This document shows, piece after piece, positions 1,070 to 18,855 of a stretch of 23,671 nucleotides of DNA. The stretch is from NCBI GenBank assembly GCA_031459875.1, contig JAVKHQ010000036.1, forward strand, positions 1 through 23,671, in the 5' to 3' direction. Each line of letters starts with the position of its first letter. Positions within the stretch are counted from its first letter, which is position 1. The notes under the pieces are model-generated. The model made no database searches and had not been told where the DNA came from. It was given only the letters and a program-made list of their open reading frames with translations. The translations under genes were made by a program, and so were the position numbers. Source of the DNA: Candidatus Fervidifonticultor sextus. Lineage in GTDB: Bacteria; Sysuimicrobiota; Sysuimicrobiia; Sysuimicrobiales; Humicultoraceae.

Positions 1070-1240
1070 TAGGTAGCGCGTGAGCTCGACTGTACCCGCG
1101 GGTCATCCATCGGGATGGTCGAGGGCAGGATCAGCGGGTTCCTGTCGCCCCGCTCCCACAAACTGTGGATCACCGCGGCCATGAGCTGCAGAACGCCCCT
1201 GTTGCGTTGGAACTTCACGAGGGTAGAGCAGTCCGCGTCT
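1070..1240 (-). pseudogene. Internal fragment of a DUF499-family AAA+ ATPase gene
   Basis: DCSTLVKFQRNRGVLQLMAAVIHSLWERGDRNPLILPSTIPMDDPRVQ, then after a 1-nt frameshift ELTRYL. This matches the DUF499 segment DWSTLxxFQRTRGVLRLMAAVIH...DDPRVQFELTRYL as recalled. Confidence 0.75.
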
Positions 1241-1265
1241 CGGGCCCTCAACCGCTCGGGATCGG

Positions 1266-1487
1266 TCAAAGAAGCCGCAGGAGCTCTTCCACACTGAGCC
1301 CCGCATGCCGCAGGATGGCCCGCAAGGTACCGCGGTCGAGTTCGGAGTGGTCCGGCACCACTACTTGCGCGAACGGATCGTCTCTGCGCATGACGATATG
1401 ACTACCGGTCTGCCGCCTGCGGAAGAAGCCGGCTCGCTCCAGGGCCCGGACGCAGTCACGCCCGGAAATACGCGGGAGCCGGTTCAC
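1266..1487 (-). CDS. hicA: Type II toxin-antitoxin HicA-family toxin (mRNase)
   Basis: 73 aa with RQTGSHIVM (GSH motif), VVVPDH and ELDRGTLRAIL. GTG start overlaps the hicB stop (GTGA). Confidence 0.92.
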   Translation of the reverse strand: MNRLPRISGRDCVRALERAGFFRRRQTGSHIVMRRDDPFAQVVVPDHSELDRGTLRAILRHAGLSVEELLRLL

Positions 1488-1690
1488 ACCACCACTAAGA
1501 CGGCCTCGAACCGCTCCGGTGGGACGGGCAGCCCGTCATCCTCCAGCGCTCCGACGTAGGCCTGAATCGCCTCTCGAACGTTGGCAATGGCCTCTTCCTT
1601 CGTCCTCCCCTGGCTCACACAACCCGGGAGGCTCGGACACTCTGCCACCCAGTAGCCGTCCTCGCCGGGATACAAGACGACCTGTCTCAT
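1484..1690 (-). CDS. hicB: HicB-family antitoxin (short form, no DNA-binding domain)
   Basis: 68 aa with GYWVAECPSLPGCVSQGRTKEEAIANVREAI. Strong RBS (aggagggaaggag) before ATG at 1690. Confidence 0.92.
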   Translation of the reverse strand: MRQVVLYPGEDGYWVAECPSLPGCVSQGRTKEEAIANVREAIQAYVGALEDDGLPVPPERFEAVLVVV

Positions 1691-1764
1691 GGCTCCTTCC
1701 CTCCTTTGAGCCGTCCCGAACATCCCACGCGACGAACTTCTCTCACCAGTCCATCAGGTCTCCG

Positions 1765-1850
1765 CAGCTCTGCCTGCCCGCAGTCCCCTCCCCGAACCCG
1801 TACTGCTCGAACCAGGCGATGGCCCACCGGTCTCGTTGTCGCACTCATCC
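1765..1850 (-). pseudogene. Fragment of a DUF1156-family adenine DNA methyltransferase gene (C-terminal region)
   Basis: With two 1-nt frameshifts it reads DECDNET(R)WAIAWFEQYGFGEG(D)CGQAEL, resembling the DUF1156 motif DFDxDTRWAxAWFEQxGFxEGxFGxAE as recalled. Confidence 0.6.
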
Positions 1851-1982
1851 CCGAGTTTATCACAGCAATCGCCGGGCCCCCTCCAGGCCGCCGCTCCAGG
1901 TGAATCCTCGCGAGAAGACGGGCCGCGCCCGCGCGTCGCCGGTTTCGCCTGCCCGGTGCGGCGGCCGACACCGCGTCCGCAT

Positions 1983-2029
1983 GATTGTGTACAATCACGT
2001 TGACAAATCTCGGCTGCTGAGGATAGCAT
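1983..2029 (+). promoter_or_regulatory. Sigma70-type promoter with upstream GntR/FadR-type palindromic operator (ABC operon)
   Basis: Palindrome tGATTGT-gt-ACAATCa (1982-1997), TTGACA at 2000-2005, 18-bp spacer, TAGCAT at 2024-2029. A near-identical block occurs at 14110-14132 on the minus strand. Confidence 0.8.
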
Positions 2030-2284
2030 GAGGCATGATCGGGGCTTCAGCGGTCGTCGCGGCTCGCGGGACCGGTCCTGCGGTAGGGGCCGCCGCGGCT
2101 AGGCCGCCAGACCCTGTGCCCGCCTGGGGGGGTGCCGCGAGGGAAGTTCGACCCGGCAGCCAGCCTCGGGATGCGCCGGCTGCGCCACGCCCGCATTCGA
2201 CCGCGTCGCCAGGCCCGATGAGGCCGACCCCCAGCCGGTCCCATGGATCTCGTTGCCAGGATGCCAGCAGAGGAGGTGGTGGCT

Positions 2285-3481
2285 GTGCAGCGTCGCGCGG
2301 TGATCGTCACGGCCGTGGTCTTCGGCCTGATCGCCCTGGTCCTGGCTCCCGCGGGGGGTCAGGCGAGGCCGCTCCGGGTCGCCATGCTGAGTTCGCTGAG
2401 CGGCCCCTTCACGTTCTGGGGGGTCAACGTGCGGGACGGGATGCGGATGGCCGTCGAGGAACTGAACACGGCCGGGGGCGTCCTGGGGAGGCCGGTGGAA
2501 CTCCTCGAACGGGACGATCGCAACAACCCGGCGGAGGCGATCAGCGCGTTCCGGGCGTTGGTGGAACGCGAAGGGGTGGCCGCGGTAGGAGGCATCCTTG
2601 GCAGCGATGTGGGGCTCGCGCTCTCTCGGGAAGCGGAACTGTTGCGCGTCCCCGTCTTTCTCAACCGGGCGGGCGCGCACACCATCCTCCAGCGCACCAC
2701 CCGCTACACGTTCCGCACCTGTCTGGTCTCGTCCCCCATGTACGTGCAGGCGTCCGCCGCGCTCATGCGCTACGCGAAGTACACCCGGATCGGCGCCGTC
2801 ATCGCCGACTACGGCTGGGGCCATTCGTACATGGAGTGGCTCAGGCGCTTCGTGGCCACCATCCCCGGCATGCGGCTGCAGCTGGAGGTGGCCCCCGTGG
2901 CGACGTCGGACTTCACGCCCTACCTGCGCCGGGTCCAGGCGGTCGACCCGCAGTTCCTCGACGTCGGCGGGCATCCGCCGGGCAATGCGGTCCTCGTGCG
3001 TCAGGCGGCGGAGCTGGGGATGACGCAGCAGATGTTCGGGGCGGCCAACCCGCCGGAACTGGTCGTCCAGCGGGCGGGGGAGGCGGCCTTCGGCCGCTAC
3101 GTCGACTACACCTGCGCGGACGTCTCGCACCCGACGTTCCGGCGGCTCGGGGCCAAGTTCTACGGCGCCTATCGACGCTACTTCGACGACAACGCCTTCT
3201 CCGGTTACGTCACCGTGCGGATGGTCGCCGATGCGGCGGTGCGGGCGAACACCACGGATCCCCGGCAGATCGCGGATGTCATCCGCCGCGGTCGCTTCGT
3301 GCAGCCGGGGTACGGCTGGCCGCTCTCCTACACCGAGTGGGGCGAGATGCGGGAGGCCCGGCCGTTCCTCTTCAGCCTCCAGCGCGGCGAGGCGCCCGGC
3401 GGCATCTGCCCGGGGTGCGGGTGGGTGCAGAAGGTGGAGTTCCGGACGCCTCCCCTGGAGCCCTATGTCCCCGAACAGTGA
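2285..3481 (+). CDS. ABC transporter substrate-binding protein, Leu/Ile/Val (HAAT) family; probably binds an aromatic acid
   Basis: Signal peptide, LSGPFTFWG, AVEELNTAGGVLGRPVELLERDD, DYGWG, TSDFTPYL. RBS aggagg before GTG at 2285. Confidence 0.9.
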   Translation: MQRRAVIVTAVVFGLIALVLAPAGGQARPLRVAMLSSLSGPFTFWGVNVRDGMRMAVEELNTAGGVLGRPVELLERDDRNNPAEAISAFRALVEREGVAAVGGILGSDVGLALSREAELLRVPVFLNRAGAHTILQRTTRYTFRTCLVSSPMYVQASAALMRYAKYTRIGAVIADYGWGHSYMEWLRRFVATIPGMRLQLEVAPVATSDFTPYLRRVQAVDPQFLDVGGHPPGNAVLVRQAAELGMTQQMFGAANPPELVVQRAGEAAFGRYVDYTCADVSHPTFRRLGAKFYGAYRRYFDDNAFSGYVTVRMVADAAVRANTTDPRQIADVIRRGRFVQPGYGWPLSYTEWGEMREARPFLFSLQRGEAPGGICPGCGWVQKVEFRTPPLEPYVPEQ

Positions 3482-4235
3482 ACGGGCCCTCCTGCGCTGC
3501 CGGCACGTCACGAAGCGGTTCGGAGGGATGGTGGCCCTGTCGGACGTGGGGGTGGAGGTTCACGCGGCCGAACTGGTGGGGTTGATCGGGCCCAACGGAG
3601 CCGGGAAGACCACCCTGCTGAACGTGATCAACGGGCTATTGCGCCCCGACCGCGGTGTCGTCGAACTGGACGGTCGGCCGATCTCCGGCATGCCGCCGCA
3701 TGCCGTCACGCGGCGGGGGGTCGGGCGCGTCCTCCAGATTCCCCGGCTGTTCCCCCACCTCACCGTCGAGGAGAACGTGCTCGTGGGGGCGCTCTTCGGC
3801 CGCGACGGGCAGGTGACGCAGAACGAGGCGCAGGCGAGCGCCGCAGAGGCGCTGGCGCTGGTCGGACTGGAGGAGAAGCGGTCTGTACGGGTGGCCCGGC
3901 TGAACACCCAGGAGCGGCGGCTGGTGGACCTGGCCCGGGCCCTGGCCGCACGGCCCCGTCTGATGCTCGTGGACGAACTCATGAGCGGGCTCAACCCCGT
4001 CGAGGTCGGGCGCGGCACCGCCCTCCTGCGCCGCATCCGGGCGGGCCTCGGCGTGGCCGTCCTCTGGGTGGAACACGTGATGGAGGCCGTGCTGGGGACG
4101 GTGGACCGGGTGATCGTTCTGAACTACGGGGCCGTCCTCGCCGACGGCCCCCCCGAACGTGTGGCGCGAGATCCGGCGGTCGTGGAGGCCTACCTGGGAG
4201 CCCCGATGGAGCCGGTCGCACCGGTCGAAGGGTAG
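3465..4235 (+). CDS. ABC transporter ATP-binding protein (LivG-like)
   Basis: KRFGG, Walker A GPNGAGKTT, LMLVDE, WVEH, DPAVVEAYLG. RBS ggag before ATG at 3465. Confidence 0.92.
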   Translation: MSPNSERALLRCRHVTKRFGGMVALSDVGVEVHAAELVGLIGPNGAGKTTLLNVINGLLRPDRGVVELDGRPISGMPPHAVTRRGVGRVLQIPRLFPHLTVEENVLVGALFGRDGQVTQNEAQASAAEALALVGLEEKRSVRVARLNTQERRLVDLARALAARPRLMLVDELMSGLNPVEVGRGTALLRRIRAGLGVAVLWVEHVMEAVLGTVDRVIVLNYGAVLADGPPERVARDPAVVEAYLGAPMEPVAPVEG

Positions 4236-4238
4236 GTC

Positions 4239-4976
4239 GTGCTGGTCGTTCAGGGCCTGTGGGCCGGATACGACGACGTGCCGCTGGTGCATGATGTGCA
4301 CCTGGCCGTGCCGGGCAGGGGCGCGACGGCGGTGCTCGGTGCCAACGGCGCGGGCAAGACCACGCTGTTCCGGGCCATCGTCGGACTGCTCCGGCCGTGG
4401 CGGGGAACCGTCCGGTTTGACGGCGAACTCCTCAGCGGCCACCCCCCTCACGAAGTGGTGCGCCGGGGCGTCGTGTACGTCCCCGCGGAGCGCGAACTCT
4501 TCCCGCAGCTCACGGTCGCCCAGCACCTGGAACTGGGAGCCTACTGCGCGCCGGGCCTGTTCCGGTCCGGGCTCGAGCGCGTCTACACCCTCTTCCCGCG
4601 GCTGGCGGAACGCAAGAACCAGCGCGCATCGACGCTGAGTGGCGGTGAACAGCAGATGCTGGCCATCGCCCGGGCGCTCATGGCCGCCCCCAGGCTGCTC
4701 CTGCTGGACGAACCCTCCACGGGACTGGCCCCCCGGTTGGTGGCGGAGCTCTACCGTCAGCTGGGCACCCTGCTGCGGGAGGGCGTGACCATCCTGCTGG
4801 CGGAACAACACGTCCAGGCCGCCCTCCATTTCTGCCAGCAGGTCTACGTGCTGAAGGACGGTCGCATCGCCTACGGCGGCCCGGCCGGGGCCTTGCGCGG
4901 GGACCCGGAACTCTACCGCACCTACCTCGGCCAGGCTCCGGGCCCGCCCGCGCCCGGTGGGCCCGGGCATCCATGA
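4239..4976 (+). CDS. ABC transporter ATP-binding protein (LivF-like)
   Basis: GANGAGKTT, LSGGEQQMLAIARALM, LLLDEPSTGLAP, LAEQ. Confidence 0.93.
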   Translation: MLVVQGLWAGYDDVPLVHDVHLAVPGRGATAVLGANGAGKTTLFRAIVGLLRPWRGTVRFDGELLSGHPPHEVVRRGVVYVPAERELFPQLTVAQHLELGAYCAPGLFRSGLERVYTLFPRLAERKNQRASTLSGGEQQMLAIARALMAAPRLLLLDEPSTGLAPRLVAELYRQLGTLLREGVTILLAEQHVQAALHFCQQVYVLKDGRIAYGGPAGALRGDPELYRTYLGQAPGPPAPGGPGHP

Positions 4977-5830
4977 CCAGCATTGTGCTGGACGGGCTGG
5001 TTCAGGGCCTGCAACTGGCCCTCCTCAGCGTCGGGGTCGTCTTCGTGTACGGGCTGGGCGGCGTCCTGAACCTGGCGCACGGCCAGCTGGCGGTGGCCGG
5101 CGGCCTCGCGGTCGCCATCCTCCGGTCTGCCCGCTGGCATCCGCTCCTCGCCTCGACGGCCGGCGTGGTCGTCGCGGGGTCGTTGGCCCTGCTGCTGGAC
5201 CGCACCCTCCTGCGCGCGGCCTACGCGCGGCGCGGGGAAGAGCGCCTGCTGCTGGGCCTCATCCTGACCCTGGGCGTCTCCTTCGCGCTGGACGGGTTCT
5301 ATGCCCTGGGGGCCCCCAACGTGGCGTTGACGCTGCGCATGCCCTCCCCATCGCTGGAGATTCTGGGCGTCCGCGTCCGCACTGCCAGTCTCGCGGTGGG
5401 CGGGCTCTCGCTGCTCACCTTCGCGGTCCTGCTGGCCTTCCTGAGGGGGACTCGCGTCGGGCAGGCGATTCGGTGCATCATCCAGAACGAGGTGGGCGCC
5501 GTGCTCTGCGGCGTGGATGTGGAGCGGGTGCGCACCCTGACCTTGTTTGTAAGCGGCGTGCTGGCCGGTGTGGCCGCCCTCGCCCAGGGCTTCTCCTCCT
5601 TCCTCGGCCCCGAGATGGGGACCGAGTTCACCATCCTGGCCGTCATCGTCGCGGTCGTCGGCGGCGTCCGGAGCCTCACGGGGACCTTCCTGGCCAGCCT
5701 CCTGCTGGGCCTGGTCAATTCGGCGCTGAGCTATACGGTCGGGACGTACCTGACGTGGATCGTCCTCTTGACCGTCGCCGTGCTGACCCTCCTGGTGCGG
5801 CCCGAGGGACTCCTCGCGTACTGGCCGTGA
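4973..5830 (+). CDS. ABC transporter permease (LivH-like)
   Basis: VYGLGGVLNLAHG, TRVGQAIR, AVVGG and multiple TM segments. ATGA overlap with the upstream gene. Confidence 0.92.
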   Translation: MTSIVLDGLVQGLQLALLSVGVVFVYGLGGVLNLAHGQLAVAGGLAVAILRSARWHPLLASTAGVVVAGSLALLLDRTLLRAAYARRGEERLLLGLILTLGVSFALDGFYALGAPNVALTLRMPSPSLEILGVRVRTASLAVGGLSLLTFAVLLAFLRGTRVGQAIRCIIQNEVGAVLCGVDVERVRTLTLFVSGVLAGVAALAQGFSSFLGPEMGTEFTILAVIVAVVGGVRSLTGTFLASLLLGLVNSALSYTVGTYLTWIVLLTVAVLTLLVRPEGLLAYWP

Positions 5831-6927
5831 ACCGGCCTGCCATGCTGCGCGCCGCGGCCCCGGTGGCCATCACCGCGCTCCTGCTCGTGGCGGTGCCCGC
5901 CCTCGTAGGCGGCAGTTCCTACGGGCTCCGCATCGCCAGCCTCACGGTGATCGTGGCCACGTATGCCGTCGCCTTCAACCTCCTGTTCGGACACACCCGT
6001 CAGCTCTTCCTCTGCATCGGAGCCCTCGCCGGGGGTGGGGCCTACGGGTTCGTCCTGTTGGTCCGCGACCTCCGGCTGGCCCCGCCTCTGGCCCTCGCGG
6101 TGGTGGCCGTCGGGGTGGCCGCCTTCGGGGCGTTTTTGAGCTACGTGAGCATCCGGCGGGGATTCGGAGTCCTGTTCGTCGGCGTCGTGACCCTGGCGGT
6201 CTCCATCATGTTCCACAACCTGCTCCTGGGCCTCCGGCAGTACACCAACGGGGAGACGGGCCTGGCCACCCGGGGAGTGGGGTTCGGCCTCGGCAACGCC
6301 CCGCAGGAAGGCTACCTCGTGCTGGTCGGGGTGCTGGTCGCCGCACTGGCAGGCCACCAGGCGCTGTTGCGCTCCCGACACGGCCTCGCGTTCCAGGCTC
6401 TCGGTGAGGACGAACTGAGCGCGGCGCTGTCGGGGATCGACGTCACCAGGTACAAGGTGGGCGCGGCCGCTGTGGCGTCCGGGCTGATCGGCCTCGTCGG
6501 AGCCCTCTACGCCGACGTCAACGGGTTCATCAGCCCTTCGGTCTTCGCCCTGGGCCATGTGGACATCCCCGTCTTCGTCGCCCTCCTGCTGGGGGGGATG
6601 CGGACCCTCCTCGGTCCGGTCGTGGGCGCGGTGCTGTTCAGCGCCGTGGACGAGGTGGTCCGGCCATTCGGACAGCTCACGGTGCTCACCTACGGGACGC
6701 TGATGGTGGTCCTCTTCCTGCTGTTTCGGGAGGGGGTGGTGCCGGCGGTTCAGCGGGTTCTCCTCCGGGCGTGGGCCCGGCGCCTTCGCGCCCGCCCCAC
6801 GCCACCAGGGGTGGAGGGCGAACCCGTCGCCTACGTGGCTGCGCCCCGCACCGTCCTGCCGCCGGAGGGCCGGAACACGGCGTCGGAGGGAGGCAAGGCC
6901 TCCGCGCGGGACCCTTCGCCGCGGTAG
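5827..6927 (+). CDS. ABC transporter permease (LivM-like)
   Basis: NLLFGHT, TNGETGL, SRHGLAFQALGEDELSAALSGID, LLGGMRTLLGPVVGA. GTGA overlap with the upstream gene. Confidence 0.9.
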   Translation: MNRPAMLRAAAPVAITALLLVAVPALVGGSSYGLRIASLTVIVATYAVAFNLLFGHTRQLFLCIGALAGGGAYGFVLLVRDLRLAPPLALAVVAVGVAAFGAFLSYVSIRRGFGVLFVGVVTLAVSIMFHNLLLGLRQYTNGETGLATRGVGFGLGNAPQEGYLVLVGVLVAALAGHQALLRSRHGLAFQALGEDELSAALSGIDVTRYKVGAAAVASGLIGLVGALYADVNGFISPSVFALGHVDIPVFVALLLGGMRTLLGPVVGAVLFSAVDEVVRPFGQLTVLTYGTLMVVLFLLFREGVVPAVQRVLLRAWARRLRARPTPPGVEGEPVAYVAAPRTVLPPEGRNTASEGGKASARDPSPR

Positions 6928-8426
6928 TGGTGGACCCACGAGCACGTGCCCCGCACCGCCTCGGGCACCGGCGGCACCCAGGTGGCCTCCCAGGTCTCCA
7001 GGTGCCCGGTGTGCTTCGCGAGCCGGTAGATGCCGGCGTGGATGCACTCCCGGTCGCCAAACTCGCAGGTGTTGCCGTCAGTCCCCCCGCAGGGGCCGTT
7101 GGCCAGACCCTTGGGGCACGTCTCCGGGCAGACGAAGAAGGTGTGGGGCAGCCGGCAGTGGCCGCAGAGCTGGCAGCCGAGCCAGCGCCCCTTCACCGCG
7201 CCCTCCGCGCGGGTGAGCAGCCGGGCGGCCGGGCCCTGGGAATTCACGCCGCGCAGCGCGACACCGGCGATCCGGGAGACCGGTGAAGCCGGGTCGAAGA
7301 CCCAGCGGTCGATGGCCTGGAGGAAGTGAAACCTCCGGATCTCGCCGGAGGAGGCAGCAGCCGGCTGAAGGGACTCCACACCGAGGTAGAAGGCGTCCTG
7401 CGGCGCCAGAACCACCGGACGGCCGTCGGGATGCCGCATCACCTCCGCCCAGGCCGCCTCCCATGCGCTCACGTCCCGGCAGGACTCCAAAAGGCGCGCC
7501 ACGGCATCCAGCAGCTCCTCCAGCGTGCGCGGTGTGTGCACCCCACACAGGTGCGCACCCGCCAGGCCCATAAGCCGCGCCCCCACCACCTGGAGCGCCG
7601 CACGGTGCATGGCGCGCCGGCGTGCCAGCGCCGGCGCGTCCAGTTCTGAGCGCAGGCAGGCCAGCAGGTCAGGGGGCACGAACACGCCGGGCAGAGGCGA
7701 GCCGCCCAGCAGGCGGGTGGCCGCCCGCGGACCGAGCAGCCACACGCTGGCCAGCACCGGCACGCGCAGCCCCCGGGCCTGAAAGAACTCCACCACCTCG
7801 CGCCACTTGCGCGGGTCCCACCCGATCTGGGCCATGAGCACGTCCGCGCCGGCCCGCAACTTCTTTGCGGCCTTGATGTACTGGCCCAGCAGCGCCTCTT
7901 CGCGGTACTTGAACGGGTTCACCGCAGCCGCAAGGAAGAACTCGGGAAAGGCCCGGCGGGCGATGCGGATGGCGTCCACCGCGTCCACGTAGCGAGCGGG
8001 CCCCTTCGGGGGAGGCTGGCGGAGCGCGTCGCCCGTCAGCAGCAGGAATGCGGACAGGCCCGATGCCGCCGCGCGCTCCAGGTCCTGTTGCAACACCTGC
8101 ACCGTGCGGCCCTTGCCCGCCCAGTGGACCAGCGGCACCACCCCCGTGGCGTCCATGGCGCGCCGCGCCACCTCGACCGCGTCGTGGTCCTGGTCGGTCC
8201 GCACCCGGTCCGACACCGTGAGGGTGGCGATGCGCCCGTCCTGCCCAACCCAGCGGGCGAGGCGTACGACATCGGCGACGACCTCCTCCAGCGGACGGGC
8301 GCCGACCAGGGGAGGTGATTCCACGGTGAGGACCAACGCCTCTCCCCGAAGCGCCGCCCGCAGGAGGCTCTGGTACCCCTGCGGCGCCGCAGGGGCGGCG
8401 CCGCCGCGAGGCGAGTCGTCCGCCAT
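6831..8426 (-). CDS. metF: Methylenetetrahydrofolate reductase (MetF domain) fused to a C-terminal Cys-rich MetV/MTHFR_C domain
   Basis: LTVES, TVSD, LLLTGD, AAVNPFKY, KKLRAGADVLMAQIGWD, GAHL. C-terminal CQLCGHC...CPETCPKGLANGPCGG...CEFGDRECIH has 8 Cys. ATG at 8426 overlaps the demethylase stop. Confidence 0.88.
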   Translation of the reverse strand: MADDSPRGGAAPAAPQGYQSLLRAALRGEALVLTVESPPLVGARPLEEVVADVVRLARWVGQDGRIATLTVSDRVRTDQDHDAVEVARRAMDATGVVPLVHWAGKGRTVQVLQQDLERAAASGLSAFLLLTGDALRQPPPKGPARYVDAVDAIRIARRAFPEFFLAAAVNPFKYREEALLGQYIKAAKKLRAGADVLMAQIGWDPRKWREVVEFFQARGLRVPVLASVWLLGPRAATRLLGGSPLPGVFVPPDLLACLRSELDAPALARRRAMHRAALQVVGARLMGLAGAHLCGVHTPRTLEELLDAVARLLESCRDVSAWEAAWAEVMRHPDGRPVVLAPQDAFYLGVESLQPAAASSGEIRRFHFLQAIDRWVFDPASPVSRIAGVALRGVNSQGPAARLLTRAEGAVKGRWLGCQLCGHCRLPHTFFVCPETCPKGLANGPCGGTDGNTCEFGDRECIHAGIYRLAKHTGHLETWEATWVPPVPEAVRGTCSWVHHYRGEGSRAEALPPSDAVFRPSGGRTVRGAAT

Positions 8427-9829
8427 CAACGGTGGGTCACCGCGGCGCGGTACTGCCGTGCGGCCTCGGAGAACGGCACCGGCGCCACCGTCGCCCGGAT
8501 CTCGGTCTGCACGTGGGGCTCCACGCTGGGCTTGCGCGACCCTCCGCCCTCCTCCCCCCACACGACGACCACCGGGGTCCCGGGCTGGCTGTACTCCTCG
8601 CGCACAATCGCCAGGGACACCATCGCCGCGTCGTTCCAGCTGTAGCCGGGCCACATGGAGATGCCCACCAGGTCGCCCTGCCGGTTCAGGATCTTGTCGT
8701 ACATCCACGTGGCGTACTGCGCCACCGGCAGGTCGATGTACTTGGCCTGTTGCCCCCTGGGCCGGGTGAAGAACGTGGCGAAGACCCGGGCCACGTCGTC
8801 AGCGTCCCACACCAGGGTGACGCGACGGCGGTGCGCCTCCCCAGCCCGGGCCTCCAGCGCCTGGCGCCCGACAAAGTCGTGGTCGAATTTCAGGATGTGC
8901 CCGTAGCCGAGTTCCCAAGGCGTCAGGTAGTAGTCTTCCACGGTGCGCGAGTAGAAGCTTCCGCCCAGGGATCCCACGGCCTCGTAGCCGTTGGCCGGAA
9001 GCCACTCGCGGTAGGGCCGCAACGCGGGACCGGTGTAAATCGCGGGCAACGGGCAGGGGATCCACCCCGAGTCCAGCGCGTTGCTCGGGTACGCCCGGGA
9101 GCCCACCTGGCGCAGCCCGAACTCCTTCCCGGCCTCCACGATGGCCGCTTTCACCGCGGGCCCCTCCTCGAACGGGCCGAAGAGTTCCGCCCCCGCCACG
9201 CCCGCCATCCCGTGGTGCAGCATCCGGACCCGGCGCCCGGCGATGGTGATCCAGCCCATGTGGAAGAACTTCACGTCGGGCACGGGTCCGCCGGCGAGCT
9301 TCGCCAGCAGGGCCGGGGCATTGGGACCCTGCACCTGGTACCGGTAGACCTTCCGCGGACGGTAGGGGTCGGCAATCGACCACTGGTCCCACTCCAGCTC
9401 CACGTCGTACCCACCCGTCCGGGCGTGGTAGGCGACCCAGTTGTGGGCGGACGGCCTGCCCACCAGCTGGAACGCGTCCCTTTCCAGGTAGAAGAGGATG
9501 CCGTCCCCGATGACGTGGCCGTCCGGACCGCACACCACCAGCTGCTTGGCCCGGCCGGGTTCGAACCCTCTGAAGCTGTTGATGGCCAGGCCTGACAGCA
9601 GCCGGAATGCGTCCGGGCCCCGCACGTACAGGTCCGTCATGTGGTACGAGAGGTCGTATAGGCACACGCTCTCCCGCCACGACCGCTGTTCGTCGCGCCA
9701 GTTGGTGAACTCCGGGGGGACCACGGGGTAGATGCGGGTCCCCGTGCGGTTGTTGAACAGGTACTCGGTGATGCTGGACACCGAGTTCAGGACGTCCTGC
9801 AGCGTCCGCGGTGCCTCACCCTGGGTCAT
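8426..9829 (-). CDS. THF-dependent aryl O-demethylase, LigM/DesA family (GcvT-like aminomethyltransferase fold)
   Basis: YPVVPPEFTNWRDEQ, SYHM, HVIGDGILF, HGMAG, VGSRAYPSN, SGWIP, KFDHDF and VEPH are characteristic of vanillate/3-O-methylgallate/syringate demethylases. RBS gaggaggag. Confidence 0.92.
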   Translation of the reverse strand: MTQGEAPRTLQDVLNSVSSITEYLFNNRTGTRIYPVVPPEFTNWRDEQRSWRESVCLYDLSYHMTDLYVRGPDAFRLLSGLAINSFRGFEPGRAKQLVVCGPDGHVIGDGILFYLERDAFQLVGRPSAHNWVAYHARTGGYDVELEWDQWSIADPYRPRKVYRYQVQGPNAPALLAKLAGGPVPDVKFFHMGWITIAGRRVRMLHHGMAGVAGAELFGPFEEGPAVKAAIVEAGKEFGLRQVGSRAYPSNALDSGWIPCPLPAIYTGPALRPYREWLPANGYEAVGSLGGSFYSRTVEDYYLTPWELGYGHILKFDHDFVGRQALEARAGEAHRRRVTLVWDADDVARVFATFFTRPRGQQAKYIDLPVAQYATWMYDKILNRQGDLVGISMWPGYSWNDAAMVSLAIVREEYSQPGTPVVVVWGEEGGGSRKPSVEPHVQTEIRATVAPVPFSEAARQYRAAVTHR

Positions 9830-9872
9830 GGTGATCCTCTCCTCCTCGCGCAGGATCGAATCCTCGCGTTCC

Positions 9873-10889
9873 TCACGGCGGTGTGGCCGCCCCCTCCGAC
9901 CGGCCGTGCACGGGCGTGGCCTCCGCGGGAGGCGTGCCGTAAGTATGGAACGTGGCCACGGTCGGCAGCCCCCACGCCTGTCCCCTCTTGCGCTCCGCCT
10001 CGGTCCACACCACGACTCTCCAGTCGGGGGCGAGGAGGAGGCGGGCGCCCGGACAGGCCACCTCGAACCGGTTGCCGCCCGGTTCGTAGACGTAGAGGAA
10101 GAATGTCTGCTGGATGGCATGCTTGTGGGGTCCTGTCTCGATTCGGACGCCGTGCTCCAGGCAGATGTCGGCAGCCCGCAGCACCTCCTCACGGCTGTCC
10201 ACGGCGAACGTGACGTGGTGGAAGCGGCCACGGCTCCCCGTGCCGTCTTCCGTGATGGCGAGGTCGTAGCTCTTGTTGCAGACCGTCAGCCAGGCGCCCT
10301 TCTCCGAGCCGTCGTCGAAGACGAGGATTTCGCTGAGGCGGAATCCCAGCACCTCCTGGAAGAAGCGCCGGTTGGCGCGGACGTCGGCGGCGAAGAAGTT
10401 GACGTGGTCCAGGCGCCGCAGGTTGGCCCCGCGGGCCGGAAACCGGGACGCCTGGTTCTTCAGGGCGGGACGCGCCTGCGGGGTCGGCCGGTACCACTCC
10501 ACCTCGTAGAGCAGCTCCAGCGCGTGCCCGTCGGGGTCACGGAACCGGTACGCCGGCCCGTGGCCCAGATCGCCATCCACCCACCCGAGACCGCGGCCGG
10601 ACCGCTCGATGCGCTCCACCCGCCGCGCCAGGGCCTGCGGGTCCATCGCGCGGAACGCGCAGTGCCCCATGCCGGGCACCGGGGAGGCGGTCACCTTCAG
10701 GGTGTGGTGCGCGTAGTCGTCCCAGCCGCGGAGGTAGATGGACTCGCCCCGACGGCCGCTCTCAACCAGGCCCATCACCTCGGTGAAGAACCGGACGGTC
10801 TCCTCGGGTGCGGGCGTGAGCAGTTCGACGTGGCTCAGGTGCGCCACGTCGAAGCTCAGGGGGCCTTCCGAGAACCGGACGTCCTCCAT
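9873..10889 (-). CDS. VOC-family extradiol ring-cleavage dioxygenase (catechol 2,3-dioxygenase-like)
   Basis: HLSHVEL, YLRGWDD, DPDGH; metal ligands LDHVN, FHHVT and NRFEV; GPHKHAI, FLYVYEPGGN. Confidence 0.92.
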   Translation of the reverse strand: MEDVRFSEGPLSFDVAHLSHVELLTPAPEETVRFFTEVMGLVESGRRGESIYLRGWDDYAHHTLKVTASPVPGMGHCAFRAMDPQALARRVERIERSGRGLGWVDGDLGHGPAYRFRDPDGHALELLYEVEWYRPTPQARPALKNQASRFPARGANLRRLDHVNFFAADVRANRRFFQEVLGFRLSEILVFDDGSEKGAWLTVCNKSYDLAITEDGTGSRGRFHHVTFAVDSREEVLRAADICLEHGVRIETGPHKHAIQQTFFLYVYEPGGNRFEVACPGARLLLAPDWRVVVWTEAERKRGQAWGLPTVATFHTYGTPPAEATPVHGRSEGAATPP

Positions 10890-10959
10890 GCCCACTCACC
10901 CCCTGTCTCCTAGTGGCCCCCTCCACCTGCTGGGCAGGCCGTGCAGGCGAGCGGCACGG

Positions 10960-11679
10960 TCACAACGCCCTCACCACCTGGGGCAGGAGGCGCTGGAACG
11001 CCTCGGCGTAGCGGATCGCGCGGTCGCCCGCGATGCGGCGGGCATGGTTGGCGCGCCGCACGGCCGTGGCCGTGTAGTAGTCCACCAGGTAGCGCTGCGA
11101 GGCGATGGCCTCCATCGCCTGCTGCTTGAGCGGGTAGACGGGCGTGATGTCGAGGAAGGTGGTGGGCAGGAACCCGCACAGCTCGGACTGGTGGGGCTCG
11201 AACGCCAGCACCTCCGAGGGGCGCACCGTCTCGAAGGCGCTGGCCACGCCGGCTCCCGCCGCCAGCTGCCGGGCACGTTCGGTGACCTGGTGGGCCACGG
11301 GGTGATCGGGGTTGAAGGGGTCGCGCTCAGGATGGGTGAGGATGACGTCAGGTCCCCACGAGCGCACGACCTGGGCGAGTTCCTCGGTGGCCTGCGGGCG
11401 CACCTCCAGCGGGTAGTCGCCCCAGTCCAGGCATCGGAAGGCCGCGCCCAGGATCTCGGCGGCGCGGGCAGCCTCCTCGTGGCGGATCGCCTTCACGCGT
11501 TCGACCGTCTGACCGGGCCGGTCCCACAGCTCCCCGGACTCGCCGCGCTCGCCGTACGACAGGGCGACCACCAGCGCCGCCCCCCCGGCGGCGGTGGTGG
11601 TGGCGATGGCCCCGCCGGCCCTCCAGACGAAATCCGCGGCGTGGGCGCTGATGACCAACAGTCTCCGCTGCGCCTCCAT
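10960..11679 (-). CDS. galB: 4-oxalomesaconate hydratase GalB-like (PIG-L family)
   Basis: SAHAADFVWRAGG, LSYGERGES, GDYP, DPFNPDHP, FEPHQ and FLDIT match the GalB signature. Confidence 0.85.
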   Translation of the reverse strand: MEAQRRLLVISAHAADFVWRAGGAIATTTAAGGAALVVALSYGERGESGELWDRPGQTVERVKAIRHEEAARAAEILGAAFRCLDWGDYPLEVRPQATEELAQVVRSWGPDVILTHPERDPFNPDHPVAHQVTERARQLAAGAGVASAFETVRPSEVLAFEPHQSELCGFLPTTFLDITPVYPLKQQAMEAIASQRYLVDYYTATAVRRANHARRIAGDRAIRYAEAFQRLLPQVVRAL

Positions 11680-11685
11680 GGCCTG

Positions 11686-12372
11686 CTAGGGCACGGCTGC
11701 GGCCGCCGTCCGGCGGGCGACGTGGCGCAGGGCCTCCAGCACCCCGCCCAGGTGCACGCGCATGGCCGCTTCCGCCGCGTCTGGGTCTCTGGAGGCCACG
11801 GCGGTCACAATGGCGCGGTGCTCCTGCAGGGACCGCTCGACCCGGCCTGGCGCCATCACGGTGCGGTACTGGTAGCGGACCATCTGGGTCCGCAACGAGT
11901 CCAGCAGCCGCACCACGGTGGCATGGCCGCTCGCGCGGGCCAGTTCCTGGTGGAACCGACCGTTCCGCTCGGAGTACCCGAGGAGGTCTCCGGTCCGCGC
12001 ACACTCCGTGCTCTCGCGCAGGATTTCCCTGAGGACCTGCACGTCTTCGGCCCGGGCACGCAGGGCGGCGTAGCGCACCGCCACGCACTCCAGCGCGGCC
12101 CGCGCCTCGAGGATCTCCACCGCCTCTCCCTCGGTCAGCAGCCGCACCCGCGCCCCGCGGTTGAGGACCCGCTCCACCACGCCCTCCTGTTCGAGGCGGG
12201 CCAGGGCCGTCCGCACCGCGGCCCGGCCCACGCCGAACATGCGCACGAGTTCCGTCTCCACCAGGCGTTGCCCGGGAACCAACCGCCCCTCCAGGAGGGC
12301 CCGGCGCAGCTCCCGGTAGCAGTGACCCTCTCCTTCTCCTCGCTTCGGACGCCGCATGCGGATCGGGCTCAC
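11686..12372 (-). CDS. GntR-family (FadR/FCD) transcriptional regulator
   Basis: LVPGQRLVETELVRMFGVGRAAVRTALARLEQEG HTH; FCD motifs NGRFH, EHRAI, MRVH. GTG at 12372 overlaps the upstream stop (alternative ATG at 12357). Confidence 0.93.
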   Translation of the reverse strand: MSPIRMRRPKRGEGEGHCYRELRRALLEGRLVPGQRLVETELVRMFGVGRAAVRTALARLEQEGVVERVLNRGARVRLLTEGEAVEILEARAALECVAVRYAALRARAEDVQVLREILRESTECARTGDLLGYSERNGRFHQELARASGHATVVRLLDSLRTQMVRYQYRTVMAPGRVERSLQEHRAIVTAVASRDPDAAEAAMRVHLGGVLEALRHVARRTAAAAVP

Positions 12373-13292
12373 ACCCCCACCTCGCCGCGGGCGATGCGCA
12401 CGGTGTTCCAGACCGCCATGGTGTGGACCTCCTCCTCGGGAACGCCGAGGGCCAGCAGCCGATCCGCCATGAGCGCGAGGCCCTCCTCGATGGGCGGGTT
12501 GTGGGGCTGGCCCAGGTCGCTGGAGAGAAACGAGTGTCGGGCGCCCACGGCGCGGATCACGTCGGCCAGCACGTCCCAGGCAATCTTTCCCGTATGGGCC
12601 GTGGTGAAGCAGCGTTCCAGCATGACGCCGTCGCGTGCCAGCGCCTTCTGGTCCTCCACCGAGAGCCGCTGCGTGGGAAAGTCGGGGTGCGTCACCACCA
12701 TCGTCCGAACCCCTGCCCGCCTGGCCGCCTCCACCACCGCGAAGATCTCGGCGCGGCTCAGATGGCCCGTGGCCAGGACCATCTGGCGCCGGGCCGCCAC
12801 CTGCAGCACGTCCCGGACTTCCGGCAGCACGCATCCGTTGCCGTCCACCACCCGGAAGGCCGCGCCGGCCACCCCCATCGTCCGCAGTTCCTCCTGCAGG
12901 GCGGCCCAGGCCGGCGGGTTCGCTGCGGACGCTCCCGCATGGTGGCGTTCGTTCTCCGCGTCCACGGTGGGCATCCAGACGATCCGCGCCCCCTCCCGGG
13001 CGGCCAGCTCCACCGCCAGAGGGTTCAGCCCTCCGACCGAGGCGTTGAGGCAGATGGATCCCAGCACGTCGACCTCCGGCACGAGCCAGCGGGCCAGGCA
13101 GGCCCGCGCGGCCGTGGAGGCATAGTGCGACTTGATGGCAAACCCTGCAAGCCCCCTCGCCGCGAACCGGCGGGCCACCTCAATGTCGTTCGCCTGCCGC
13201 GGCAGCACGTCGGGGCCGCTGTGCACGTGGAGGTCGTAGCCGCCCCGCACCAGAGCCCGGGCCCGCTGGCTGCTCTCGGCCTGTGCGCTCAT
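12369..13292 (-). CDS. DUF6282-like amidohydrolase-fold metalloenzyme of unknown function
   Basis: DLHVHSGPD, KSH, VWMPT, ATGH, VTHP, SSDLGQ. ATGA overlap with the upstream gene. Confidence 0.78.
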   Translation of the reverse strand: MSAQAESSQRARALVRGGYDLHVHSGPDVLPRQANDIEVARRFAARGLAGFAIKSHYASTAARACLARWLVPEVDVLGSICLNASVGGLNPLAVELAAREGARIVWMPTVDAENERHHAGASAANPPAWAALQEELRTMGVAGAAFRVVDGNGCVLPEVRDVLQVAARRQMVLATGHLSRAEIFAVVEAARRAGVRTMVVTHPDFPTQRLSVEDQKALARDGVMLERCFTTAHTGKIAWDVLADVIRAVGARHSFLSSDLGQPHNPPIEEGLALMADRLLALGVPEEEVHTMAVWNTVRIARGEVGV

Positions 13293-14080
13293 CCCGCCGT
13301 CGCGAGATCGTCCAGCCATTCCACACACGCCCGGGTGACGCGCGGGGGGACGCCGAGCGACTCCAGGAGTTCTGCAGCGCCCCGCATCTCGTCGGCGCGC
13401 CGGGCGGCGTGCGTCCGCGTACCCTCCAGCAGGCGGCGCAGGAGGGCTTCGTCCGCTCCGTGCAGGGTCTGCGCCATGTCCTGGTAGACCTCATCGGCAC
13501 AGCCGAGGGCCTGCGCCGCCCGCAGCGCCTCGACGGCGGAGGCGGCCAGCCCCTTGGTGAACACGCTGCGGACGAGCTTCCGGCCACTCGCCTCACCCAC
13601 CTGCGGGCCGAGCACGCGCACGGGCATGCCGAGCCCCCCCGCCCACGCAGCGAACGCCTCCGCCCCCGGTCCACTGGCCAGCGCGGGGGTGCGCAGCCCA
13701 CGTCCCGGCACCGGCGCCATCAGGGCCACGTCGGCGAACAGCACCCCGGCCGGGTGCAACAGCGACGCCGTGCCCTCCTTCTGCCGGGGGGACGCGCTGG
13801 TGGCGTCGGCATACACCTGGCCGTCGCCGAGGTGGCGCGCCAGCACCTGCGCGACGTCCGCGGCCGCCCGCGGGGTGGTGAGCACCAGGACCACATCCGC
13901 CTCGGCCACGGCCGCCGCAGGGCCCTGGGCGAGGGCGACACCGGGCGGGATCCGCTTGGGCTGGGGGTCCCAGCCGACCGTGCGCACGCCGCGCTGCACG
14001 AGGTCCTCGGCGATGGCGGACCCGGCCTCCCCCAGGCCGAACACCGCCACGGTGGCGCGGGAGGACGACGCGGGCCGCAC
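13289..14080 (-). CDS. NAD(P)-dependent oxidoreductase (beta-hydroxyacid dehydrogenase fold with DUF1932-like C-terminus)
   Basis: GLGEAG Rossmann motif, DVALMAPVP, KLVRSVFTKG, HAARRADEM. GTG at 14080 follows the -10 element after a 6-nt gap. Confidence 0.85.
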   Translation of the reverse strand: MRPASSSRATVAVFGLGEAGSAIAEDLVQRGVRTVGWDPQPKRIPPGVALAQGPAAAVAEADVVLVLTTPRAAADVAQVLARHLGDGQVYADATSASPRQKEGTASLLHPAGVLFADVALMAPVPGRGLRTPALASGPGAEAFAAWAGGLGMPVRVLGPQVGEASGRKLVRSVFTKGLAASAVEALRAAQALGCADEVYQDMAQTLHGADEALLRRLLEGTRTHAARRADEMRGAAELLESLGVPPRVTRACVEWLDDLATAG

Positions 14081-14086
14081 GGCTCC

Positions 14087-14132
14087 ATGGTACCGACGGT
14101 GCGCACCTCTGTCAACTTTATTGTAAACAATC
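14087..14132 (-). promoter_or_regulatory. Sigma70-type promoter and GntR-type operator of the catabolic operon
   Basis: Minus strand GATTGT-tt-ACAAT-aaag-TTGACA (14132->14110), 17-bp spacer, TACCAT (14092->14087). Confidence 0.82.
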
Positions 14133-14169: not shown

Positions 14170-15378
14170 TCAGCGCGTGGTGATGCGAAAGACGGCGCCC
14201 TCGTGGTGCACCACGTAGAGCCCGCCCTCTTCGTCTTCGCCGAAGGAACTGATGCGAAGCCCCGATTCGAGCAGGAGGGTGCTCGTCCACCGGCCCGGGC
14301 CGCTCTCGCGCAGCCCCCAGATCTGGCCGCCGCAGTAGTCCCCGTACACGTACCATCCGATCAGGCCGGGCGACCCCGCGCCGCGGGCGACGTAGCCGCC
14401 GGTGACCGCGCACCCCAGCGAGGTCCGGTACTCCGCGATGGGCCGGATGAGTCCTTCGGTCCGACAACCCGACGGGGGAGCAAAACAGTGACTGCCCTCC
14501 ATGATGCGCCAGCCGTAGTTGCCGCCTCTCCGGAGCACGTTGATCTCCTCCCAGGAGCCCTGGCCCACGTCGGCCAGGAAGAGACGGCCGTCGCACCGGT
14601 CGAAGGAGAAGCGCCACGGATTCCGCAGCCCGTAGGCCCAGATCTCGGGCCGCGCATCCAGCCGGCCTGCGAACGGATTGTCCGGCGGCACGGTGTAGGG
14701 GCGGCCGCCGTCCACGTCGATGCGCAACAGTTTCCCCAGCAGCGACCGTAAATTCTGCGCGTGGTTCCCGGGATCGCCGCCGGAACCGCCGTCACCCATG
14801 GCGATGTAGAGCATGCCGTCGGGGCCGAATTTGTTGAGACCGCCGTTGTGGTTCGGGAAGGGCTGGGGAATCTCCAGCAGGACCTGCTCGGACGGATCGG
14901 CCGCGTCGGGATCGAATCGGAAGACGCGGTACTCGGCGATCACCGTGCGGCCGTCGGGGCGGGCCGTGTAGTTCACGAAGACCCGACCGGTCTGCGCGTA
15001 CCTCGGATGAAATGCCACGCTGAGCAGCCCGCGTTCGCCGCCGGTCAGCACACGGGATCGGATGTCCAGGAAGGGACGCGGGAGCAGGCGGCCGTCGCGA
15101 GCGATGCGAACGGTCCCTCCCTGTTCGACGAGGAAGAGCCGCCCGCTCCGGTCGCCCGCGTGGGTGAGGTAGACGGGGGAGGCGAGTCCCCCGGCGATCT
15201 GCTCCAACCGGATTCGCGGGGGTGTCGGCGCGGCCGGTCGGCACACATCCGGAGGGACGCCTCCGGCCGTCGCGGGACGGGTCGCCGCCATGCCCGGCAG
15301 GGCGAGGACGGTGGCCGCCACGGCGACAGCCTGGCCGATGCGCCGGCGAGGGACGGCCGTGCCCCTCCCGGAGCTCAC
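14170..15378 (-). CDS. PQQ-dependent sugar dehydrogenase (glucose/sorbosone dehydrogenase family), exported
   Basis: GERGLLSVAFHP, NHNGG, FGPDGMLYIAMGDGG, YGLRNPWRFSFD, NYGW, SSFGED, plus an N-terminal signal peptide. Start uncertain. Confidence 0.9.
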   Translation of the reverse strand: MSSGRGTAVPRRRIGQAVAVAATVLALPGMAATRPATAGGVPPDVCRPAAPTPPRIRLEQIAGGLASPVYLTHAGDRSGRLFLVEQGGTVRIARDGRLLPRPFLDIRSRVLTGGERGLLSVAFHPRYAQTGRVFVNYTARPDGRTVIAEYRVFRFDPDAADPSEQVLLEIPQPFPNHNGGLNKFGPDGMLYIAMGDGGSGGDPGNHAQNLRSLLGKLLRIDVDGGRPYTVPPDNPFAGRLDARPEIWAYGLRNPWRFSFDRCDGRLFLADVGQGSWEEINVLRRGGNYGWRIMEGSHCFAPPSGCRTEGLIRPIAEYRTSLGCAVTGGYVARGAGSPGLIGWYVYGDYCGGQIWGLRESGPGRWTSTLLLESGLRISSFGEDEEGGLYVVHHEGAVFRITTR

Positions 15379-18821: not shown

Positions 18822-18855
18822 ATTTCGCGCCTGGTGCGGGATCCTCATTTCTCTT
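18818..18855 (+). terminator. Putative riboswitch expression-platform terminator
   Basis: GAGGATTTCGCGC-ctg-GTGCGGGATCCTC stem followed by ATTTCTCTT. Its 5' arm overlaps the 3' strand of P1. Confidence 0.6.

Follow-up and report, generated by a model that had tools for sequence, protein, structure and literature searches.

A putative GntR-controlled regulon for methoxy-aromatic acids in Candidatus Fervidifonticultor sextus, with a VOC dioxygenase and a DUF6282 protein at the predicted ring-fission steps

How might methoxylated aromatic acids be degraded in a genome that has an aryl O-demethylase and a GalB-type hydratase, and from which several of the textbook enzymes of such pathways are missing? 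The question is raised by contig JAVKHQ010000036.1 of Candidatus Fervidifonticultor sextus, here called the window, which is the entire 23,671-bp contig (C30 in our numbering) of a 3.05-Mb assembly in 67 contigs, 96% complete and with about 71% G+C. Its minus strand carries, at 6831-14080, seven intact open reading frames (ORFs) that appear to form a catabolic operon. Molecular detail on the catabolism of syringyl and guaiacyl lignin monomers comes mainly from a few Proteobacteria, where LigM and DesA transfer aryl O-methyl groups to tetrahydrofolate (THF) and GalB hydrates 4-oxalomesaconate (OMA). Our proposal, which we hold with moderate confidence, is that the operon is part of a GntR-controlled two-operon regulon for the uptake and catabolism of acids of the syringate / 3-O-methylgallate / vanillate class, by a variant of the gallate / protocatechuate-4,5 meta-cleavage pathway.

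The initial annotation of this DNA named seven co-oriented genes, and all seven identities hold in Pfam, NCBIfam and PDB sequence searches of the window ORFs. From the start of the operon, the features are:

13289-14080, minus strand: DUF1932 / 6PGDH-like NAD(P) oxidoreductase (DUF1932/NAD_binding_2), 263 aa, GTG start (Pfam; PDB 3qsg, E 1.9e-28)
12369-13292, minus strand: DUF6282 protein, 307 aa (PF19799, E 7e-69)
11686-12357, minus strand: GntR/FCD transcription regulator within the operon, 223 aa (Pfam, NCBIfam)
10960-11679, minus strand: GalB-type hydratase, PIG-L fold, 239 aa (5cgz, E 1.5e-57)
10890-10959, minus strand: deletion scar, where relatives have an RraA/LigK-like aldolase gene of about 200 aa (alignment with relatives)
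9873-10889, minus strand: type I (VOC) two-domain extradiol dioxygenase, 338 aa from ATG (TIGR03211; 9wgj, E 6e-116)
8426-9829, minus strand: THF-dependent aryl O-demethylase, LigM/DesA family, 467 aa (5x1i, E 2.3e-158)
6831-8426, minus strand: MetF-MetV fusion, 531 aa, with an MTHFR domain and a Cys-rich PF12225 domain (Pfam)

The DUF6282 start overlaps the DUF1932 stop (ATGA) and the MetF-MetV start overlaps the demethylase stop (TGATG), the remaining intergenic gaps being 11, 6, 70 and 43 nt. The demethylase contains the GcvT-type folate-binding domain (PF01571, E 5.5e-37) and matches 5x1i over residues 5-459 of 467. It scores 592.5 against the NCBIfam LigM model (cut-off 580) and 636.9 against the DesA model, the latter score being higher but below the cut-off of 800; we regard it as a single, DesA-leaning demethylase. 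The MetF-MetV fusion combines PF02219 (E 7.5e-13) and PF12225 (E 1.1e-17) in one ORF, and scores so far below the MetF equivalog cut-offs that it must be a distant member. Elsewhere in the genome (contig C4:66953-70033), metV, formate-THF ligase and metF, in that order, form a cluster of their own with about 30% identity to the fusion, and the MetF-MetV of the operon is therefore a dedicated second copy. The GalB-type protein matches the structure of P. putida GalB (5cgz) over residues 6-237 of 239, the next-best PIG-L match having an E value of only 1.2e-6, and its N-terminal AHxADFVWRAGG segment is identical to that of 5cgz in the printed alignment. Activity as a hydratase on OMA/KCH is thus predicted from family membership.

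Put together, these families suggest the following route. The LigM/DesA-type enzyme would move the aryl O-methyl group to THF, as expected of its family, and the translationally coupled MetF-MetV protein would re-oxidise 5-methyl-THF into the one-carbon (C1) pool. The type I VOC dioxygenase, with its evident fold and metal ligands, may then open the resulting catechol or pyrogallol acid, and DUF6282, which has a clear fold in the model described below, would convert the ring-fission product to 4-oxalomesaconate / 4-carboxy-2-hydroxymuconate, its substrate being either the lactone 2-pyrone-4,6-dicarboxylate (PDC) or the methyl ester CHMOD, which cyclises to PDC. The GalB-type hydratase is predicted by its family to form CHA (4-carboxy-4-hydroxy-2-oxoadipate), which in the relatives a LigK-like RraA aldolase would cleave to pyruvate and oxaloacetate; this last gene is deleted in the genus of the window. 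DUF1932 would be an accessory NAD(P) oxidoreductase.

The absence of the LigAB/GalA, GalD/LigU and LigK/GalC families from the window, also pointed out in the initial annotation, is confirmed, and extends to the whole genome for LigB (PF02900), PrpF (PF04303) and RraA (PF03737), none of which has a match there. LigI or LigJ of the Amidohydro_2 family are likewise not found in the window; four Amidohydro_2 (PF04909) genes are located elsewhere in the genome. Among five other carrier genomes, LigB is missing from four and PrpF from four.

A gene-neighbourhood comparison, which had been suggested as a check on conservation, shows that the gene set recurs elsewhere. DUF6282 has more than 4,700 homologues, with about 60% identity retained across Armatimonadota, Ktedonobacteria, Thermomicrobium, Limnochorda and Actinomycetota. 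A 26-sequence DUF6282 profile was used to collect 80 genome loci, on which all counts given here are based; neighbouring genes were identified by tblastn (E <= 1e-10, coverage >= 50%), except that RraA-like, SnoaL_4 and thiamine pyrophosphate (TPP) enzyme genes were counted by ORF clustering and Pfam. A core cassette of DUF6282, GalB, aldolase and VOC dioxygenase is found in most of the loci, from Actinomycetota, Chloroflexota and Armatimonadota/CSP1-3. GalB lies beside DUF6282 in 75 loci and the VOC enzyme in 68, followed by GntR (47), DUF1932 (16), a LigM-like gene (13) and MetF-MetV (3). An RraA-like aldolase gene is present in 70 loci, a SnoaL_4 gene after the VOC gene in 31, and a TPP enzyme in 37; other neighbours are GMC, zinc-dependent alcohol dehydrogenase, MetE-like and beta-ketoadipate genes (pcaHG, CoA-transferase, thiolase). 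The full seven-gene order of the window recurs in L001-L003, which are metagenome-assembled genomes of CSP1-3/Armatimonadota from hot springs, and L001 has in addition a formate-THF ligase and a second LigM-like gene downstream. At the other extreme, bare DUF6282-GalB-RraA-VOC operons with unrelated flanks are found in L051, L074 and L076. This implies that the core cassette needs no linked dehydrogenase, and that DUF1932 is an accessory. In actinobacterial loci, strong LigM orthologues (840-875 bits) and DesA-like paralogues adjoin the cassette, and in L017 and L060 it is accompanied by a DesA-like and LigM pair, which fits syringate-type substrates. Of the two DUF proteins that were earlier suggested to fill the missing steps, only DUF6282 is a member of the core, DUF1932 being found in just 16 of the loci.

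It is worth adding that in L057, from the cultured actinobacterium Gryllotalpicola ginsengisoli DSM 22003, the cluster at 8452-13783 reads DUF1932-GntR-DUF6282-GalB-RraA-major facilitator superfamily transporter. This cluster has no VOC gene, there being only homologues of 30-32% identity elsewhere in the genome, and neither LigB nor PrpF is found in that genome.

The demethylase content of the loci also bears on whether lignin-derived acids are the substrates at all. It could be argued that the cassette acts on some other, non-lignin catecholic acid, and that the demethylase was recruited only locally. LigM-like genes are indeed present in only 13 of the loci, some carriers have no orthologous VOC enzyme, and the frequent neighbours in Solirubrobacterales, namely the TPP enzyme (37 loci), GMC oxidoreductases and MetE-like proteins, are unexplained. 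However, GalB and the LigK-like aldolase define a lower pathway of the OMA/CHA type, and the demethylases that are present are bona fide relatives of LigM or DesA. We consider this explanation very improbable.

The dioxygenase of the proposed route departs from the characterised systems. It scores 333.5 bits against TIGR03211 (cut-off 320.2), PF00903 is matched in two stretches, and the closest structure is 9wgj, followed by 3lm4 and 7q2a (E about 8e-70). Its metal triad, a His in LDHVNF, a further His (the second in FHHVTF) and a Glu in NRFEV, aligns with the ligand positions of 1f1x (homoprotocatechuate 2,3-dioxygenase) and 3hpv. At the position of the second-sphere catalytic His of homoprotocatechuate 2,3-dioxygenase (His200), which catechol 2,3-dioxygenases also have, the window enzyme has Tyr, as does 9wgj, whereas AphC and 3lm4 of Rhodococcus retain His. 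AphC acts on alkylcatechols, substrates that carry no carboxyl group. The position could be resolved by pattern in 52 of the 68 VOC orthologues, with Tyr in 16 and His in 36, the Tyr forms coming from CSP1-3, Thermomicrobium, Ktedonobacteria, Rubrobacter and some Thermoleophilia. The fold and the metal ligands thus identify a ring-cleavage enzyme, for which 3-O-methylgallate, gallate or protocatechuate are the candidate substrates.

We note separately that the Tyr-variant subclade includes the window enzyme and those of L001-L005, L008, L010, L012, L017, L019, L039, L043, L044, L052 and L065. The structure 9wgj, deposited as 'Catechol 1,2-dioxygenase', falls within it; our search found no literature on this entry.

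What, then, does DUF6282 do? Searches against PDB by sequence gave no usable match, either with a single sequence or with a 26-row profile, and no literature on the family was found. An AlphaFold model was built from 26 sequences and submitted to a fold search. The model (pLDDT 90.5) is a (beta/alpha)8 barrel of the amidohydrolase superfamily. It superimposes best on phosphotriesterase (PTE)-homology proteins and lactonases (Z 19-20), for example the E. coli phosphotriesterase-homology protein 4lef (Z 20.4, 244 residues aligned, rmsd 3.3) and the Lmo2620 lactonase 3pnz (Z 19.4), and on dipeptidases and TatD (Z 19-20), the LigI-like structures 4i6k (Z 17.8) and 2ffi (Z 17.2) scoring lower. In all 26 sequences D20, H22, H24, K54, H56, D111, H177, H202 and D259 are invariant, together with eight Arg or Lys residues. 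The HxH...H...H...D set matches the amidohydrolase pattern, with a placement of residues on strands that is likely from the model. All of this suggests a metal hydrolase acting on an anionic substrate, most likely one that hydrolyses a ring-fission lactone or methyl ester. In the ESM Atlas, the nearest named clusters were PTE and TatD at 0.82-0.83, which is too low for more than a lead.

Gene context points in the same direction. The order DUF1932 > DUF6282 > GalB > aldolase parallels LigC > LigI > LigJ > LigK, and it is this parallel that makes DUF6282 a candidate hydrolase of PDC lactone or CHMOD, and DUF1932 a candidate LigC-like accessory. DUF1932 is usually directly upstream of DUF6282, and read-through or fused forms exist of both DUF1932::DUF6282 and DUF6282::PIG-L. 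There are also longer homologues, in which an HpcH/HpaI domain is fused to DUF6282 (three 90%-identity clusters; proteins P0127, P0129 and P0130, 616-625 aa). One such fusion is found on a 4.7-kb metagenome contig (L100), where 983-4744 holds a 116-aa cupin, the HpcH/HpaI::DUF6282 fusion, a VOC dioxygenase and a metallo-beta-lactamase-fold gene. The genome of the window itself has a second DUF6282 (L086; contig C52:298-11534), 32% identical and located between two bicupin dioxygenase-like genes, in a cluster that also has RidA, Amidohydro_1, GntR/FCD, a Liv-type ABC transporter and a short-chain dehydrogenase/reductase. The fusions, the neighbours in L100 and the C52 paralogue all tie the DUF6282 family to the processing of ring-fission products. 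On the L100 contig there is no GalB, and the aldolase part of its fusion contains a frameshift. A metagenome scan with the HpcH::DUF6282 protein returned L100, its partial copy L101, two short contigs (L102 and L103, 47-52% identical) and 76 distant relatives (32-40%), among which ORF clustering found no conserved neighbours and so no functional clue.

DUF1932 is more elusive. Its closest structures, headed by 3qsg, are all of unknown function, and the literature search gave nothing relevant. It might tentatively be a LigC-like enzyme that oxidises a ring-fission hemiacetal to the lactone, and such an activity would open the route to substrates of the protocatechuate type. DUF1932 is present in 7 of the 13 loci that have a LigM-like gene. 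A relation to the absence of pcaHG was also considered, pcaH being nearby in 2 of 17 loci with DUF1932 (the 16 plus the window) and in 13 of 64 others, but this is too weak to use.

The proposed use of a lactone or ester can be compared with what is known of methoxylated substrates. In the accessible text of PMC8091115, 3-O-methylgallate is cleaved to the methyl ester CHMOD, whose cyclisation to PDC needs no enzyme, and cleavage of gallate gives OMA. The syringate route of Pseudomonas sp. NGC7, as far as it is described in the accessible part of PMC12314914, consists of VanA1B1 (one demethylation), MgaAB, MgaC (an alpha/beta-hydrolase acting on CHMOD), MgaD (a SnoaL-like PF13577 isomerase), GalD, GalB and GalC, under the control of a GntR repressor. 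On that description, the route proposed for the window shares with it one demethylation, cleavage of 3-O-methylgallate, a dedicated hydrolase, GalB, a GntR-type repressor and, for the MgaD family, the SnoaL_4 gene beside VOC in 31 of the 80 cassette loci. The same description gives the differences. The NGC7 demethylase is the Rieske enzyme VanAB, which releases formaldehyde, whereas that of the window is THF-dependent, and NGC7 uses a LigAB-like dioxygenase and the alpha/beta-hydrolase MgaC where the window has a VOC enzyme and the amidohydrolase-fold DUF6282. The initial annotation had proposed that the route runs through gallate to OMA. By analogy with NGC7 and Novosphingobium (accessible text of PMC12314914 and PMC8091115), the single DesA-leaning demethylase would fit at least as well with cleavage of 3-O-methylgallate followed by ester or lactone hydrolysis, which makes the order from gallate to OMA no more than a candidate.

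The system of Sphingobium sp. SYK-6 and Novosphingobium aromaticivorans (DesA, LigM, MetF, LigAB/DesZ/DesB, LigC, LigI, DesCD, LigU, LigJ and LigK) includes an O-demethylase of this family that depends on THF and has its own MetF, extradiol ring opening, a lower pathway via OMA and CHA, and a LigK aldolase that resembles that of the window's relatives. It differs in that the window dioxygenase is of type I VOC and not LigB type, the hydratase is of GalB type (PIG-L), MetF is fused to a MetV-like domain, and DUF6282 and DUF1932 stand at the intermediate steps, the operon having no Gfo/Idh/MocA LigC, no Amidohydro_2 LigI or LigJ and no PrpF LigU. The gal cluster of P. putida KT2440 (GalA, GalD, GalB, GalC) shares the GalB-type hydratase and a four-enzyme logic leading from a trihydroxybenzoate to pyruvate and oxaloacetate. 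Unlike it, the window has no GalA (fused LigB/LigA type), no GalD (PrpF) and no aldolase, and its regulator is GntR rather than LysR. The cassette thus appears to follow the same logic as the known routes using other folds, with VOC in place of LigAB/MgaAB and DUF6282 at the position of LigI/DesC/MgaC, while the window is set apart by its regulon of THF-demethylase, MetF-MetV and transporter, and by the selected loss of the last enzyme, the aldolase.

The resemblance to the gal cluster invites a different assignment, in which two demethylations would lead to gallate, the VOC enzyme would be a gallate dioxygenase giving OMA, and DUF6282 would replace the GalD/LigU isomerase ahead of GalB. The four-gene core would then map one-to-one onto GalA, GalD, GalB and GalC, in keeping with the conversion of gallate to OMA in the accessible text of PMC8091115 and with the lack of PrpF in this genome and in four of the five other carriers. 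Many actinobacterial loci adjoin pcaHG, and the genome of the window has a pcaHG-like pair of its own (contig C66). In P. putida, the gal cluster coexists with the ortho pathway. This assignment is hard to reconcile with the single LigM/DesA-like gene of the genome and with the nearest folds to DUF6282, which are hydrolases; a candidate isomerase, SnoaL_4, is already alongside DUF6282 in 31 loci, and the tight coupling of DUF1932 and DUF6282 is left unexplained. We regard it as unlikely.

The amidohydrolase fold would equally accommodate a C-C hydrolase: LigY, an amidohydrolase, is a C-C hydrolase of another ring-fission product. In such a hydrolytic protocatechuate route, VOC would cleave protocatechuate at the 4,5 position, DUF6282 would release formate from the semialdehyde, the GalB-like enzyme would hydrate the dienoate to HMG (4-hydroxy-4-methyl-2-oxoglutarate) and the aldolase would yield two pyruvates. 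Such an arrangement resembles classical meta pathways, where a dioxygenase, a hydrolase, a hydratase and an aldolase form one branch. The minimal four-gene operons without a dehydrogenase and the location of the C52 paralogue between dioxygenase-like genes both speak for it, and RraA-type aldolases also cleave HMG (PMC5065237, accessible text). On the other hand, the similarity to GalB indicates a C7 substrate, DUF1932 would be left without a role, pcaHG is present beside many cassettes as well as in this genome, and our literature search found no precedent for such a route with defined genes. This makes the hydrolytic route quite improbable, and lactone or ester hydrolysis by DUF6282 remains our preference.

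The existence of a regulon is suggested by the DNA on either side of the two operons, where the following features were found:

14120-14131, minus strand: putative GntR operator ATTGTTTACAAT, a 12-bp imperfect palindrome conserved in L001-L003 amid diverged intergenic DNA
14087-14115, minus strand: promoter, with -35 TTGACA (14115-14110), a 17-nt spacer and -10 TACCAT (14092-14087), both hexamers conserved in L001-L003
1984-2028, plus strand: a further operator and promoter, built like the first, ATTGTGTACAAT, 4 nt, TTGACA, 17 nt, ATAGCA (pattern search)
2276-6927, plus strand: Liv/HAAT-type ABC transporter operon with a binding protein, two ATPases and two permeases, convergent with the catabolic operon (Pfam)

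Operator ATTGTTTACAAT is likewise 4 nt from its -35 hexamer, and the GTG start of DUF1932 is only 6 nt past the -10, so that the mRNA is probably leaderless. The core palindrome TTGTNNACAA has two matches in the window, where 0.03 are expected. It has seven sites in the 3.05-Mb genome, and only the two in the window have an adjacent TTGACA. Since operator and promoter are common to both operons, the transporter would belong to the regulon, with the internal GntR controlling both, and the unit would span 1984-14131. The extent first proposed, 6831-14132, does contain all of the catabolic genes, and its end includes the operator and promoter, but it is too short if the co-regulated transporter operon belongs. 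The 3' ends of MetF-MetV (minus strand) and of the second ABC permease (plus strand) overlap convergently by about 94-97 bp (6831-6927), an arrangement in which the operons of the putative regulon have no space between them for terminators.

It remains to consider the aldolase. In L001-L003, GalB and VOC are separated by an RraA-like gene of some 200 codons; in the window only 70 bp are left at this site, about 590 bp having been lost, and both ends of the former gene are recognisable in the alignment. Over 9800-12000, a Logan contig of run X1 (possibly the source sample) agrees with the window at every position. In run X3, which comes from a different sample, a contig covers 10048-11426, with 62 substitutions and without a gap; runs X2 and X4 gave short pieces only, none across the deletion scar. 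The same arrangement is seen in a second species of the genus (G002, 84% complete), where the gap measures 73 bp and nothing RraA-like was matched. The X1 and X3 contigs and the second species together show clearly that the loss was not created by the assembly. Orthologues in which the aldolase is retained, with GalB 75-84% identical, belong to a different family within the order (G039, G036 and G033). The best NCBIfam model for the relatives' aldolase is CHA aldolase/oxaloacetate decarboxylase, at 169 bits (cut-off 179). This disposes of the earlier idea that a DUF protein fills the aldolase step, because relatives have a LigK-like RraA aldolase (70 loci), which the window has lost. No replacement was found: besides the lack of a PF03737 match, tblastn with the aldolases of two relatives found nothing in the 96% complete assembly. 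The only HpcH/HpaI aldolase of the genome (contig C13) sits in a PTE/GntR/DUF3830/Gfo-Idh-MocA cluster; its role as a substitute is neither supported nor excluded.

The loss might mean that the operon is a decaying remnant whose function disappeared with the aldolase, as the missing gene interior and the lack of any RraA in a nearly complete genome could be taken to indicate. However, neither the window nor the second species has a disrupted ORF among the seven, and the operator and promoter are intact. The ratio of nonsynonymous to synonymous substitution rates (dN/dS) between the window and the second species is 0.12 for VOC, 0.15 for GalB, 0.21 for GntR and 0.31 for DUF6282, and 0.13 over the first 121 codons of the demethylase. 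Values of 0.12-0.31 show that the aldolase-less operon is maintained by selection. Of the 23 X3 differences in VOC among the differences listed, 16 are on third codon positions. We therefore give little credence to decay.

If the operon is under selection, the aldolase-less pathway must serve some purpose, and this is a question in itself in a putative chemoautotroph. Reductive-glycine or Wood-Ljungdahl chemistry has been reported for the phylum of this organism (PMC11604079, accessible text). A speculative answer is that in this hot-spring genus the operon has become a methyl-harvesting device, in which the aldolase was discarded while the demethylase, MetF-MetV, the ring-opening enzymes and the transporter were kept under selection, methoxy groups being fed to the folate C1 pool and the ring detoxified or passed to an unrelated aldolase. 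Apart from this, DUF6282 would found a novel family of hydrolases for ring-fission products, and the VOC enzymes of the Tyr variant would form a novel class of dioxygenase for gallate / 3-O-methylgallate. We find these ideas rather unlikely as they stand.

Several observations weigh against our proposal of a two-operon regulon for methoxy-aromatic acids. Its enzymatic steps derive only from families, folds and gene context. The fold search puts many amidohydrolase subfamilies within 2-3 Z units of each other, a spread within which lactonase, esterase, C-C hydrolase, hydratase and isomerase functions of DUF6282 cannot be separated. LigJ, which is a hydratase, also belongs to the amidohydrolase superfamily. 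DUF1932 is missing from 64 of the 80 loci and from the minimal operons, and is also present in 9 of the 67 loci that have no LigM-like demethylase. With a pcaHG-like pair in the genome itself, a protocatechuate branch is less needed here. A lactonase would be superfluous with gallate as the substrate, since its cleavage yields OMA directly (PMC8091115, accessible text). The transporter binding protein gives no clue to the ligand, having only generic HAAT-family PDB matches (E 1e-19 or weaker), which mix amino-acid and aromatic-acid binders. Finally, with the aldolase gone, nothing in this genome accounts for what becomes of the C7 product; the C13 HpcH/HpaI protein belongs to an unrelated cluster and shares just 29% identity with the HpcH domain that is fused to DUF6282 elsewhere.

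If the proposal is correct, the cassette would represent an alternative that is widespread in Actinomycetota, Chloroflexota and Armatimonadota/CSP1-3, phyla outside the characterised examples, in which the dioxygenase and two or three of the middle enzymes are replaced by unrelated folds, and DUF6282 would gain its first function. No description of the DUF6282-GalB-RraA-VOC cassette was found in a literature search that most subscription journals and supplements lay outside, and the main text of two CSP1-3 papers, supplements aside, makes no mention of aromatic, vanill, methoxy, demethylase or gallate. The proteins are small and soluble, and there are cultured carriers (Gryllotalpicola ginsengisoli DSM 22003, Rubrobacter taiwanensis, Thermomicrobium sp. 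CFH 73360 and Limnochorda pilosa), so every step is directly testable. Thermophilic versions could serve in the funnelling of lignin to PDC.

Other features of the window lie outside the proposed regulon. A gene of the class A beta-lactamase family (PF13354, E 1.4e-69) is located at the start of the contig (48-797, minus strand), and beta-lactamase is absent from the gene clusters that recur in at least 6 of the 80 loci. A pyrroloquinoline quinone-type glucose/sorbosone dehydrogenase gene (14170-15300, minus strand) ends 90 bp upstream of the operon start codon, and no such gene is beside the cassette in any of the 80 loci. A c-di-GMP-I-GGC riboswitch aptamer (RF03167) was identified at 18744-18818 on the plus strand, with 65.1 bits (gathering score 59) and E 1.5e-13. 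It sits directly upstream of a response-regulator/HD-GYP gene (PF00072 and PF13487, about 18810-19955) and overlaps the start of this gene, a position which implies that a cyclic-dinucleotide sensor may control a likely cyclic-dinucleotide phosphodiesterase.

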